A stretch of DNA of 9,133 nt from a virus (IMGVR_UViG_2585427757_000007:1-9133); one strand, 5' to 3'. Shown: positions 3,230 to 6,842, counted from the stretch's first letter. Notes: a model not told the origin generated them from the letters alone. Numbers and translations: made by a program.

Positions 3230-3445
3230 CAGAATCCTTCCGGATAATTAGCTCTCCCCTTCAGGGGGCCATCCCTCTTATCCCTGCGCGCTACTTAAGT
3301 GTTTTGGATTCTATATCCGGTGTCTTAAAAAAGTTAAAACGCATTGAAAATAAAACAAAAACCGTCGAAGCGGGTTAAGTGCGGGTGCGTTGAGGATGCC
3401 GACACATCAGAGGTGGCGGGAGATTACTCTCCCGCCAGGTCACTC

Positions 3446-3601
3446 TTACTCTCTAGATTCGTAGTCTACGAAAACAGCAACCTCCATCTGGCCGGTTCGG
3501 ATTCGTACCTCGCAGAGGTCTTTCCTCGTTACCAGTGCCGTCACTATGACGGTTAAACAGATGACGATCAGGGCGATTAACATCGCCTTTTGCTGCTTCA
3601 T
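3446..3601 (-). CDS. hok: Hok/Gef-family type I toxin (HokD/RelF-like), 51 aa
   Basis: Product MKQQKAMLIALIVICLTVIVTALVTRKDLCEVRIRTGQMEVAVFVDYESRE: a single transmembrane helix plus the conserved C..R.....E.A.F...E tail, near-identical over about 38 residues to E. coli HokD as I recall it. ATG at 3601..3599 with SD AAGGAG about 9 nt upstream. The track ORF 3446..3628 begins at an upstream GTG that I consider less likely. Confidence 0.9.
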   Translation of the reverse strand: MKQQKAMLIALIVICLTVIVTALVTRKDLCEVRIRTGQMEVAVFVDYESRE

Positions 3602-3659
3602 AGCCTGCTTCTCCTTGCCTTTCGGCACGTAAGAGGCTAATCTTCAGTTGTCGAGACAT
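3453..3659 (-). CDS. mok: mok-like overlapping reading frame (modulator of killing), about 68 aa
   Basis: An alternative frame overlaps nearly all of hok and starts at ATG 3659..3657, about 58 nt upstream of the hok start, as in canonical hok/mok/sok loci. The track ORF 3453..3758 is the longest form; the shorter start is an inference. Confidence 0.45.
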   Translation of the reverse strand: MSRQLKISLLRAERQGEAGYEAAKGDVNRPDRHLFNRHSDGTGNEERPLRGTNPNRPDGGCCFRRLRI

Positions 3660-3877
3660 AAGACTGGCCTCACTTCGATTTATAGTCGGGTGGGGCTTTT
3701 CTCTATCTGCCTTTTGGTGTTCATGCCTGAGACAGATAGCCTCAAGCACCCGCAGCAATTCTACTTATGACGCAATTTAATGACAACAACTCTACAGCGG
3801 TAGTGTGTTTAACTATTGACATTGATTAACTCATTATTCAAAATTTTTGCGTACGCATTAATGATTTTGTGTCGTTG

Positions 3878-3934: not shown

Positions 3935-5077
3935 ATGGAAATTAAGCAAGTTATCGTTCATGAACTAATTAAAGAAGCAAAAAAGGATTTTGATTTTTCT
4001 AAGCCGTATCAGCTTAGATCCACTCCTCTCGATAAAACCAATCCAATTGTTATAAAACTTATTCAAGACATTTCATCTTTATATGGAACCAAAGGCAATT
4101 CTGCACATTATGGCGTTTTTAAAGAGGAGAAAACAGAACAAGGGCCTGTGCCATCAATATTTGAAGAGTATTCTCAGTCAGAGGATAACATTAATGAAAA
4201 GTTTGTGCCTTTTTCTATTGAAGTGATGAAGCAACTTGTAAAAAAAGCCAAAGAAGAACCTTGGTCATCTGGTGGTTTTATTGTGTTTTGTGACTATATT
4301 GTAAATAACAATAAATTCTTTTTAATTGCAATGATTAAAAAGAAAAATGGTGTTACTATCAGCAACAAACTCGAACCTGAAGAAATGATCCATTTGGATC
4401 TATCCAAAATACACCAAGCAGCAAGAATAAATTTCAATCTCTACCAACAATATAAAACTGCTGATGAGTCTGAAAAAATTGACTTAAGTTATCTAAGTTT
4501 CGTAAGTAAAGGAGTGGGTCAATCCACATCAGCATATTTTATTGCAGCAATAGGATGCGACAAATCACTTGCAGCAGCAAAAGCCACAAAAAAACTACCA
4601 ACTGTCGCAAAACAATTTTTTAACCAAAAACCAGAACTTAAAGCATGTGCCAATAGATTTAAACATGACGTTATTGCATATTTAGACACACAAGCAGCTA
4701 AAAATTTATCAGCCCGATTGAGTGATATTGAAGTAATTGCAGCACGTCACATGACAAATTTAGATGAGTCTACCAAAGAATCTTACACTCACGAATTAAT
4801 TCTTTTTTTAAATAGTGAAAATGTGAGAATCCCAACTGAATTTGTTATCAGTAAACGGGCGTTGAAAGACATTAAAAACATCACCTTTAAGACTGATGAG
4901 ATTGGATTTAATTTTGACAAGTCTCTCCTTGGAGTGACAGCTGATGATGATGTGTGGTACGATGAAACAACTGGAAGATTATCATTTACAAACTTACCAG
5001 CTGAATTTAAGGCTAAACTAAGCGCTGTGGTAAAAGAAAATTTAAAAATAAGGGATAGTGGAAAAGAAAATGGCTAA
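3935..5077 (+). CDS. Nucleoid-associated protein YejK/NdpA (NA37 family) homologue, divergent, 380 aa (gene A)
   Basis: ATG 3935 with SD AGGTGA upstream. Several blocks align with E. coli YejK as I recall it: IVHELIK vs IALHQLIK; LYGTKGNSAHYGVFKEE vs VYSAKNKAYGLFSEE; GGFIVFCDY vs GGFVLFCHY; FNFDKSLLG...VWYDETTGRLSF vs INFDAMLLG...IFWDPATDTLTI. The gene is about 30% GC, unlike the flanking backbone. Confidence 0.85.
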   Translation: MEIKQVIVHELIKEAKKDFDFSKPYQLRSTPLDKTNPIVIKLIQDISSLYGTKGNSAHYGVFKEEKTEQGPVPSIFEEYSQSEDNINEKFVPFSIEVMKQLVKKAKEEPWSSGGFIVFCDYIVNNNKFFLIAMIKKKNGVTISNKLEPEEMIHLDLSKIHQAARINFNLYQQYKTADESEKIDLSYLSFVSKGVGQSTSAYFIAAIGCDKSLAAAKATKKLPTVAKQFFNQKPELKACANRFKHDVIAYLDTQAAKNLSARLSDIEVIAARHMTNLDESTKESYTHELILFLNSENVRIPTEFVISKRALKDIKNITFKTDEIGFNFDKSLLGVTADDDVWYDETTGRLSFTNLPAEFKAKLSAVVKENLKIRDSGKENG

Positions 5078-6290
5078 TTTATCAACGGTTGTAGATTTTT
5101 ATAGAGCATCATCGAAGCCCCAATTCGACGGACGTTCTTTTTCTGCAACTGTTGAAATAAATAATAACAATCAACGTTTGGTAAACTTGTTAGTAAATTC
5201 ACATAAAGCCTACGGTTATTTTGAAGATGTTGATATTAATAATGAGTTCATTGACGAAGACGATTTAAAATCACACCCAATTAAAATTGGAGATAAATTC
5301 TCATACACTTACATATCCCCTAAAAATGGAGCAGAACGTTTCTATAACTCAATTCAAGAGTTCCTTTGTATAAACTCACTCAAGAAAGGTGTAATTCCTA
5401 AAGAGTATTACATAATCGATGAGGATTTTCATCCGTCTGATTCAAGTAAACCGGACGAAATTATAAAAATCGAGAAAATTTGTGCAATTATTTCTTCCCT
5501 GGCTGAGATTGCGCACTTTCACGATACAAAATCGGAATCTTCAAATTATCGTTTAGTTTTCGTGAAAGATTCTGACGCAAAATCAACATCTATTATTTTA
5601 GAAACGTGCATTACACCTAAGATGCTCAATATAAATGACATTGATGATGCTATCATCAAGAGTCTTTTAGATGTAAAAAACGCCCAAATCCCCCATCAAG
5701 CAGAAAAAACAGGTATTTTCAGGAATACCATAGTGGAGTTTATTCTCGATAACAAATATGATTTTGAAAACCTAATTTGCCATTGGGATAAATTTGTAAA
5801 GCTATTTGAAAATAATTTATCCACGTATATGAGTGGTTTTTCATTCCATAAGGCACGAAAAGAAATTGCGAAGTCTGAAGCAGAGTTTGCTGAAAAAATC
5901 TCAAAACTTATTACTGATTTGACGACAAAAGTATTATCAATCCCTGTGTCTTTACTGGCATCCTTCGGGATTATAAAACTAACATCAAGATCTGAAATGT
6001 TACTCGTTTTATTAGGTGTATTGTTAAGCTCACTTATTTTATATATGGTATTACTCAATCAGGATAAACAATTAAAACATATTTACCATGCTAAAGATAT
6101 AGCATTTATGCCTTTTCTAAAAAACAATGAAAATTATCCAGAAGACCTTAAGAAGGACATTAATGAGGCTCTATATGAACTATCAAAGAGCCAAACCAAA
6201 TGTGATAATACAATAAAGTTATTTATGTATTTGGCTTGGCTACCAAGTTCTATTGCAGCAGGAATATTTCTTGCGAAGATTTTTATTTAG
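5070..6290 (+). CDS. Membrane-anchored protein of unknown function (gene B); about 300-aa soluble N-terminal region plus C-terminal hydrophobic helices
   Basis: Preferred start is ATG 5070 (MANLSTV...), which overlaps the gene A stop (5075-5077) by 8 nt; the track ORF begins at GTG 5058. Hydrophobic segments (track numbering): VLSIPVSLLASFGIIKL (about 292-308), MLLVLLGVLLSSLILYMVLL (314-333) and LFMYLAWLPSSIAAGIFLAKIFI (388-410). AT-rich; no known motif recognised. Confidence 0.8.
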   Translation: MANLSTVVDFYRASSKPQFDGRSFSATVEINNNNQRLVNLLVNSHKAYGYFEDVDINNEFIDEDDLKSHPIKIGDKFSYTYISPKNGAERFYNSIQEFLCINSLKKGVIPKEYYIIDEDFHPSDSSKPDEIIKIEKICAIISSLAEIAHFHDTKSESSNYRLVFVKDSDAKSTSIILETCITPKMLNINDIDDAIIKSLLDVKNAQIPHQAEKTGIFRNTIVEFILDNKYDFENLICHWDKFVKLFENNLSTYMSGFSFHKARKEIAKSEAEFAEKISKLITDLTTKVLSIPVSLLASFGIIKLTSRSEMLLVLLGVLLSSLILYMVLLNQDKQLKHIYHAKDIAFMPFLKNNENYPEDLKKDINEALYELSKSQTKCDNTIKLFMYLAWLPSSIAAGIFLAKIFI

Positions 6291-6306
6291 CTCTAACAGT
6301 TAGAGC
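6290..6306. other. Short palindrome between convergent genes B and C; weak candidate bidirectional terminator
   Basis: GCTCTAA (6290-6296) / TTAGAGC (6300-6306) with loop CAG. It contains the last base of the B stop codon (TAG 6288-6290) and the whole C stop codon (TAA on the minus strand, 6300-6302). The stem is AT-rich and lacks a clear U-tract on either side. Confidence 0.3.
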
Positions 6307-6815
6307 ATTAATACTCCCTCCAATACTCCCATCGCTGCTTGTATTTTTTTTCTAATAGTCCCATCCGCACATTTCTTTCTTTTTGCGATCTTTCTCAAAG
6401 AAACGCCTATTACAAAGTGGGCAACAATTAACTCATATTCATCTATTTTATATTGTCTGAGTCTCAATATCCACTCATCAATCACTCGCCCTTCATCATC
6501 GCGGCTCTGGCGACGCAATTTTTTACCATGAGGCACAACATCTTTATATTTATCAGCCACTTGCTGCCAGTTGATAGAACTATTTCCAGCTACAGCCCAA
6601 GCTCCCCAACAGTCCAAAATATCATATATATTAGCATTGCTATCTACCTGTTTTTTATATTCTTTTTTGAAGCGAGCAAGAAGCATCCTGGCCATCGTTA
6701 TTATTTCTATACTTGTAACTGATTCATAAGCATCAGGAGAAATAATCCTCCCATCACTTAATGCCCTTTCACTAAGATTTGCTATTTCCAATAATCGTTC
6801 TTTAGTTATTTCCAT
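6300..6815 (-). CDS. Q933/QuuD-family (PF06530-type) antiterminator-like protein with about 60-aa N-terminal extension (gene C), 171 aa
   Basis: Preferred start is ATG 6815..6813 with SD GGAG 7 nt upstream; the track ORF starts at GTG 6827. It shares a WGAWA motif and the C-terminal block ELIVAHFVIGVSLRKIAKRKKCADGTIRKKIQAAMGVLEGVLML with the DLP12/933W-type Q protein as I recall it (...LLVDYYVVGMTF...CSDGYIGKRLQKAEGIIEGMLMAL); this region also resembles a sigma-70 region-4 HTH. About 38-40% GC. Confidence 0.7.
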   Translation of the reverse strand: MEITKERLLEIANLSERALSDGRIISPDAYESVTSIEIITMARMLLARFKKEYKKQVDSNANIYDILDCWGAWAVAGNSSINWQQVADKYKDVVPHGKKLRRQSRDDEGRVIDEWILRLRQYKIDEYELIVAHFVIGVSLRKIAKRKKCADGTIRKKIQAAMGVLEGVLML

Positions 6816-6826
6816 TATTATCTCCA

Positions 6827-6842
6827 CCGCCCTTTCGGGCGG
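6827..6842 (-). other. GC-rich hairpin immediately upstream of the gene C ribosome-binding site
   Basis: CCGCCC (6827-6832) / GGGCGG (6837-6842), a perfect 6-bp GC stem; on the minus strand the loop is GAAA (a GNRA-type tetraloop). No U-tract follows on either strand, so it is not a classical terminator. It abuts the SD of gene C. Confidence 0.4.

Follow-up and report, generated by a model that had tools for sequence, protein, structure and literature searches.

A probably complete hok/mok/sok type I toxin-antitoxin module of the hokD/hokW subgroup in a lambdoid prophage

The mechanistic prototype of the hok loci is hok/sok (parB) of plasmid R1, in which the hok -10 element TATGAT has been validated by mutation (PMC9841398). 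A counterpart from a lambdoid (pro)phage is hokW-mokW-sokW of the Stx2 phages 933W and Sakai Sp5 (AF125520; Takada et al. 2021, PMC8621323), which was shown to be a working type I toxin-antitoxin system and whose toxin is 44% identical to R1 Hok (PMC8621323). In that study the sokW -10 element TAACCT was inactivated by mutation as a promoter-less control, and toxicity was unmasked; the bases changed are apparently those that can be read from primers YO-421/422 (PMC8621323). After mitomycin C treatment Sok was lost, Hok was made in a RecA-dependent manner and phage release was doubled, and the system of Sp5/933W assists lysis and phage release after induction (PMC8621323). The toxicity of Hok, its neutralisation by Sok and the RNase III-dependent decay of the duplex are known from these two relatives, R1 and hokW-sokW (PMC8621323).

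Here we analyzed a related locus in a window of 9,133 nucleotides of viral DNA (IMGVR_UViG_2585427757_000007:1-9133); all positions are counted from its first letter. The locus is very probably a complete hok/mok/sok type I toxin-antitoxin module of the hokD/hokW subgroup, placed in the nin-like region of a lambdoid prophage. All elements that define such a module were found (Table 1), as judged by their presence, position, conservation and predicted folds. A sequence-only reading had described an apparently intact hok/mok locus within the prophage at 3446-3760. Sequence, folding and comparison bear out the locus, but the span has to be enlarged: on the minus strand the unit runs from the hok promoter (3786) to fbi (3383) and on to a weak terminator (to ~3343). 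No insertion, frameshift, deletion or IS element was found in it, in contrast to hokA, hokC, hokE and hokD of K-12; in K-12, hok loci other than hokD have IS elements inside or beside them. Both the system and the subgroup are already known, and the novelty is allelic only, with nothing new in kind. The practical value of the locus lies in annotation: pipelines label only the Hok ORF here, leave Sok, mok and the mRNA elements unmarked in those E. coli records that were examined, and sometimes add a spurious antisense 'hypothetical protein'.

Table 1. Features of the hok/mok/sok locus and their positions in the window
Feature	Position	Strand	Basis or remark
hok/mok mRNA promoter: -35 TTGTCA (3786..3781), 17-nt spacer, -10 TAGAAT (3763..3758)	3786..3758	minus	promoter scan, 10/12 matches
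Full-length hok mRNA, ~370-377 nt, ending just past fbi	3751..3375	minus	start of Rfam match; alignment to R1-type and 933W
tac, mRNA nt 1-11	3751..3741	minus	predicted to pair with nt 358-369 (full-length) or nt 54-60 (truncated)
Metastable 5' hairpin of nascent transcript, nt 3-29	3749..3723	minus	fold of first 50 nt, -17.2 kcal/mol, z=-2.3
ucb (anti-SD, AAGCCCC), nt 54-60	3698..3692	minus	pairs with mok SD (full-length fold) or tac (truncated)
mok Shine-Dalgarno GAGG, nt 81-84	3671..3668	minus	column invariant in family alignment
mok frame, 68 codons	ATG 3659..3657, stop 3453	minus	covers nearly all of hok in another frame
Predicted Sok target loop CUCGACA, nt 97-103, starting with a YUNR (CUCG) U-turn	3655..3649	minus	tops SD/dcb hairpin 3671..3633
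dcb (GCCUC), nt 115-119	3637..3633	minus	pairs with mok SD in open form
hok Shine-Dalgarno AAGGAG	3616..3611	minus	9 nt before hok ATG
hok toxin gene, 51 aa (MKQQKAMLIALIVICLTVIVTALVTRKDLCEVRIRTGQMEVAVFVDYESRE)	3601..3446	minus	one N-terminal transmembrane helix, Cys30; Pfam HOK_GEF
CUACGAA motif with Tyr47 codon (UAC, 3463..3461)	3464..3458	minus	possible TadA A-to-I site (Y47C)
Strong 3' hairpin, nt 315-338	3437..3414	minus	-19.8 kcal/mol, z=-7.1
fbi, nt 358-369 (CCUCAACGCACCC)	3394..3383	minus	complementary to tac; kept even in truncated K-12 hokD
Degenerate intrinsic terminator after fbi (CCCGCUUCGACGG + U-rich run)	3374..3343	minus	-3.1 kcal/mol
Sok promoter: -35 TTGCCT (3615-3620), 17 nt, -10 TAATCT (3638-3643)	3615-3643	plus	homology to R1-type and 933W promoters
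Predicted Sok RNA, ~51-57 nt	3650-3706	plus	covers mok SD and start codon; alignment to sokW, sokC
Parts of Sok: single-stranded 5' tail; terminator hairpin; U run	3650-3665; 3666-3697; 3697-3700	plus	predicted fold

The 933W locus is 86% identical over its length and agrees with the window in the promoter -10, tac, the 5' hairpin, ucb, the position of the mok start, the hok SD, fbi and the 3' hairpin. Its Sok promoter has one base changed in the -10, and HokW differs from the Hok encoded here in 3 of 51 residues. The antitoxin part is less alike. The hairpin of SokW is longer by a 21-nt insert that is absent from the window, and the 5' recognition tail and the target loop both differ (9 of 24 positions shared in the tail segment), which makes cross-neutralisation improbable (duplex -23 vs -56 kcal/mol). 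The sequence upstream of the -10, including the -35 region, and the flanking genes differ as well. By its sequence the locus is a sister allele of hokW and not hokW itself.

With R1 the locus shares the overlap of mok and hok, the pairing of the mRNA ends through tac and fbi, the ucb/SD and SD/dcb alternatives, the metastable 5' hairpin, the position of the Sok promoter with its 17-nt spacer and the YUNR target loop. The toxin of R1 has diverged and its locus is on a plasmid, whereas the present one is in a prophage; the first leader stem-loop and the Sok hairpin are shorter here, and the bulge in tac is U4 (C3 in R1). The chromosomal hokA/sokA locus (L060) has a Sok terminator hairpin, with its ucb-SD segment, nearly identical to window 3666-3700 on the plus strand, and sokA in most E. 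coli genomes matches the 70-nt Sok region at 81-84%. In contrast, the 5' tail of its Sok differs (tail duplex -13 vs -33.5 kcal/mol) and the sequence of the HokA toxin is quite different.

Across the whole window the single Rfam family match was RF01794 'sok', which covers 3751..3596 of the minus strand (122.1 bits; gathering score 59; E=3.5e-28; model positions 1-157 of 157). Since the RF01794 consensus opens with tac and closes at the hok AUG, this model scores the leader of the hok mRNA. The match reads in the sense of that mRNA, and the Sok gene lies inside the leader on the opposite strand.

The toxin matched Pfam HOK_GEF (PF01848) with 78.7 bits (cut-off 22, E=2.4e-22) and scored 52.8 bits with the NCBIfam Hok subfamily, under the cut-off of 73 bits; its hydropathy peaks at 3.07 over residues 6-24. 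These results, together with a Shine-Dalgarno sequence 9 nt before the ATG, agree with the earlier view of a complete Hok frame with a good SD. Many E. coli assemblies encode exactly this protein. Residue 39 is Met here and Thr in the 44 complete Hok ORFs from our genome scan; this position is variable in the wider family (Arg in R1 Hok, Tyr in HokA). We considered an in-frame extension of Hok to 60 aa from a GTG at 3628 and rejected it, as it lacks an SD and the ATG at 3601 aligns with all relatives. The overlapping mok-like frame, previously placed about 58 nt upstream, was recovered with its own SD: its ATG precedes that of hok by exactly 58 nt and in the alignment coincides with the start annotated for mokW in phage 933W. 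Its match to DUF5431, the family label of ORFs at the Mok position beside hok on plasmids, is weak (20.2 bits, below the 27-bit cut-off).

We regarded two plus-strand ORFs, 3344-3556 (70 aa) and 3648-3770 (40 aa), as antisense artefacts. In some genomes RefSeq lists a 59-aa 'hypothetical protein' antisense to the 3' half of hok (L064, 40-219; CP025847). It corresponds to a mechanical plus-strand ORF at ~3344-3556 of the window and is probably an annotation artefact.

Near the 3' end of hok the Tyr47 codon lies within CUACGAA, which we take to be the same motif as the anticodon loop of tRNA-Arg(ACG). All 37 aligned hok loci, the R1 type included, have the nucleotides TACGAA unchanged. At the equivalent of Tyr47, hokC, hokD and hokE are reported to undergo A-to-I editing by TadA, changing Tyr to Cys (PMC12214031). 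A 4-bp stem (UAGA/UCUA) could present CUACGAA as a 7-nt loop; however, such a tRNA-Arg-like hairpin around Tyr47 is not the local MFE fold, and TadA editing at this codon is thus a lead only.

The -10 of the hok promoter aligns with the R1 -10 TATGAT, and by homology with the R1 +1 (GGCGCUUGAGG) we place the first nucleotide of the hok mRNA at G3751 (GGGUGCUUGAGG). The hairpin predicted for the first 50 nt occupies tac and matches the metastable structure of R1 (PMC9841398). At the other end, the hairpin of nt 315-338 is expected to protect the 3' end of the processed, translatable mRNA. The terminator that follows fbi is weak: CCCGCUUCGACGG gives -3.1 kcal/mol here, whereas CCCGCUUCGGCGGG with its U run gives -13.8 kcal/mol in relatives, and two substitutions separate the versions. 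The weak form is common to the window and to E. coli loci of the CP196099 type, which have an identical 3' half. Owing to this weakening, the primary 3' end of the hok mRNA is uncertain and primary transcripts may read on towards rem.

The sequence-only reading had expected Sok on the plus strand around 3640-3710, offered TTGCCT-N17-TAATCT as a candidate promoter and could not resolve a terminator. On all three points comparison and folding support a Sok gene at this place. The promoter hexamers are where they had been reported, and homology to the R1 type and 933W indicates that the pair is the right one: it aligns column for column with TTGCGC-17-TATCCT of the R1 type and TTGCCT-17-TAACCT of 933W. 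A generic promoter scanner misses it because the second hexamer has only 3 of 6 consensus matches. The annotated sokW of 933W maps to window 3650..3700 and K-12 sokC ends ...GGGGCUUUUCUCUAU, and on these grounds Sok is predicted at ~3650-3706. The terminator is the hairpin at 3666-3697, followed by UUUUCUCU. This hairpin reaches -19.5 kcal/mol on the plus strand (z=-2.8) vs -11.7 on the complement; owing to its many G·U pairs it forms well only on the plus strand and is hard to spot by eye. The annotated sokW, sokC and sokB, as well as R1, show the same linear arrangement of promoter, start and hairpin. A terminator scanner proposed another 3' end (stem 3687-3709, tail CCTTTTGG), which we regard as less likely, the hairpin at 3666-3697 being homologous to those of sokC, sokB and sokW.

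Nineteen complete E. coli genome records contain the exact 70-nt Sok region, and the 15 that were listed carry no annotation for it. The loop CUCGACA on the mRNA and nt 1-6 of the predicted Sok are complementary to each other. With this target, K-12 SokB, SokC, SokE and SokX, and also SokW and SokA, gave duplex energies of -23 to -30 vs -56 kcal/mol for its own Sok. With duplexes this weak and tails dissimilar, we consider cross-talk with any of these antitoxins unlikely.

The folding elements of the hok mRNA, whose disruption had been named in advance as a sign of decay, are preserved in prediction. The 377-nt RNA (3751..3375) has an MFE of -145.1 kcal/mol (z=-6.0 vs shuffles), and in both the MFE and centroid folds of the full-length RNA tac and fbi form eleven pairs, nt 1-11 with 358-369; in the same fold ucb (nt 54-60) is in a hairpin with the mok SD. 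In versions shortened to 338-345 nt, which end soon after the strong hairpin, nt 1-8 paired with nt 54-60 (tac/ucb) and the SD left ucb. In the MFE of the truncated RNA the mok SD pairs with a distal segment and not with dcb; the SD/dcb hairpin forms in a 130-nt fold and in isolation (-13.6 kcal/mol, z=-3.0), with the 7-nt loop CUCGACA. The predicted folds correspond to the closed, open and metastable states described for the R1 hok mRNA (PMC9841398).

For comparative analysis we used 50 loci encoding Hok relatives from a scan of species-representative genomes. We retained 30 of these, each a distinct row in which the Hok ORF is complete, both mRNA ends are present and the flank is long enough; their sources are Escherichia, Shigella, Kluyvera, Photorhabdus, Pantoea, Citrobacter, a soil MAG and an unclassified Enterobacteriaceae isolate. 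Together with the window, 933W, E. coli E203449 and an R1-type plasmid they make an alignment of n=34. On it, 91.7% of cells were paired under the closed structure of the window vs 42-47% with slid partners, and 15 pairs change on both sides, a number reached by none of 500 shuffles. Four of these pairs are in the ucb/SD hairpin and five in the 3' hairpin. At position 4 of tac/fbi a swap is seen, with U-A in 20, C-G in 12 and U-G in 1 of the sequences. This alignment supports the full-length (closed) fold. Across the same 34 sequences ucb and the core pairs of tac/ucb and SD/dcb are invariant, and since they never vary the comparison cannot confirm the open form.

From these elements we infer the transcription, processing, translational coupling, toxicity and biological role of the locus, and there is good confidence that the regulatory mechanism may be carried over from R1. 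By homology with R1 hok/sok, the near-consensus promoter would give a stable hok mRNA of ~370 nt, and during its transcription tac would be held in the metastable 5' hairpin. Once the RNA has its full length, tac (nt 1-11) would pair with fbi (nt 358-369) and ucb would hide the mok SD; we propose that this RNA consequently escapes both translation and binding by Sok. Removal of fbi would come with slow trimming from the 3' end as far as the hairpin of nt 315-338. With fbi gone, tac would pair with ucb and the mok SD would enter the SD/dcb hairpin, whose loop CUCGACA would display the U-turn. In the lysogen the short, unstable Sok would bind this loop by its free 5' tail and the duplex would be degraded. 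As Sok would cover the mok SD and AUG, translation of mok would be blocked and, we propose, the coupled translation of hok with it. Should the supply of Sok stop, through loss of the element, shut-off of transcription or induction of the prophage, the stored mRNA would be translated and Hok would depolarise the inner membrane.

The most likely role of the locus is killing or assistance of lysis on induction or loss, as for hokW-sokW; stabilisation of the prophage and phage exclusion are plausible, putative functions. The orientation of hok is that of the phage early-right genes, and read-through on induction could both increase hok RNA and impede the Sok promoter. If active, the module would provide the prophage with a kill or lysis-assist function adjoining a likely anti-phage operon.

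Two other readings of the locus were weighed. The first is that it is a decayed remnant in which the gene is present and regulation is broken, as in K-12 hokD (relF), the relative that lies in Qin with the same neighbours rem, ydfU and a Q-like gene. Hok shares 90% identity with K-12-type HokD, whose sequence is the same in loci L007-L014, the neighbours rem and ydfU are those of Qin, and the terminator is weakened. K-12 hokD is nearly identical to the window from the hok SD through the CDS, the 3' hairpin and fbi; it keeps nothing beyond that segment, however, and relBE stands in place of the promoter, tac, ucb, the mok start and sok. The window has all of these, together with a full-length Rfam match and predicted pairing of the mRNA ends. 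As the homology with K-12 begins only at the hok SD, with relBE upstream, the window holds the complete form of the hokD/hokW-type locus, and K-12 hokD is a 5'-truncated remnant of this locus type. A decayed remnant is therefore very improbable here and is contradicted by the sequence already; the locus rather offers a clean example of the truncated K-12 hokD locus in complete form. It opens no new question.

It is less improbable, though still unlikely, that the module is structurally intact and phenotypically silent, transcribed like hokA, hokB and hokC, with a Hok that is never toxic naturally and a module that hitch-hikes with the prophage. Earlier work, as recounted in bioRxiv 10.1101/2025.08.07.668861, saw neither post-segregational killing nor rifampicin activation with native chromosomal hok loci, some of them apparently intact. 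The weakened terminator after fbi is in line with such silence, and full toxicity may need low-level A-to-I editing at Tyr47, which in K-12 hokD amounts to only 6% (PMC12214031). Against this, the regulatory elements are all conserved and show compensatory changes from genus to genus, and the hok promoter is close to consensus. In addition, hokW-sokW, the homologue from a prophage, is active with a phenotype of its own (PMC8621323), and 42 of 45 Hok homologues tested were toxic (bioRxiv 10.1101/2025.08.07.668861).

The locus is a recombinant between two variants that occur in E. coli prophages. Over 3900-3602 (upstream sequence, promoter, leader, Sok module and Sok promoter) the window matches E. 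coli 602354 (CP025847) with 100% identity, and over 3601-3300 (hok CDS, 3' UTR and downstream sequence) it matches E. coli EC2202095 (CP196099), again with 100% identity. E203449 is 59/60 to 156/156 identical per segment from 3900 to 3375, two segments aside: a 24-nt Sok tail/mok-start segment (10/24) and the Sok-promoter segment (35/42). We consider it possible, though less likely than not, that in this recombinant locus an antitoxin-specificity cassette of ~50 nt (Sok tail and hairpin, mok start, target loop) has been exchanged independently of the toxin gene. If such shuffling is selected, for example because it allows escape from neutralisation by resident Sok RNAs of co-resident prophages or of the chromosome, lambdoid hok loci would evolve like the specificity modules of exclusion or immunity. 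The closest complete E. coli genomes match the window at 96-98.5%, over parts of it only.

The genes around the locus follow a lambdoid prophage order: DnaC-like, DUF977, DUF4406, DUF4752, Q-like antiterminator, hok, rem, a small ORF, DUF968/ydfU, rusA and DUF1133. Between the Q-like gene and hok, on the strand opposite to hok, there is a two-gene operon (3935-6290, plus strand) whose genes overlap by 20 nt. The first encodes a 380-aa nucleoid-associated protein of the YejK/NA37 type (Pfam 175.8 bits) and the second a 410-aa protein with hydrophobic segments at the C-terminus. The pair matches the NCBIfam anti-phage pair DS1_1/DS1_2 weakly, with 101 and 105 bits, below the cut-offs of 330 and 315. 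A PADLOC search gave no match for Hok, Rem or the two operon proteins, and a literature search on the NCBIfam name 'DS1' gave none either. The layout resembles that of 'type II PANGU', a NAP sensor with a membrane effector (bioRxiv 10.64898/2026.04.06.716658), and the operon is likely to be defence cargo of the prophage.

A promoter-like site for the NA37 operon, TTGACA-17-CAAAAT, is located at 3816-3844 on the plus strand, and the hok promoter (3786..3758, minus strand) stands back to back with it within ~90 bp. In 933W and in loci of the CP196099 type, which are without the NA37 operon, the sequence upstream of the conserved -10 differs, and the -35 region of the hok promoter is consequently a different one. 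The window has two antiterminator-Q-like genes, both on the minus strand: one at 6300-6827 (Phage_antitermQ, 101.9 bits), which is not followed by lysis genes, and a DUF1133/ydfT-like gene at 644-1198. The presence of both suggests a patchwork of two nin/Q regions.
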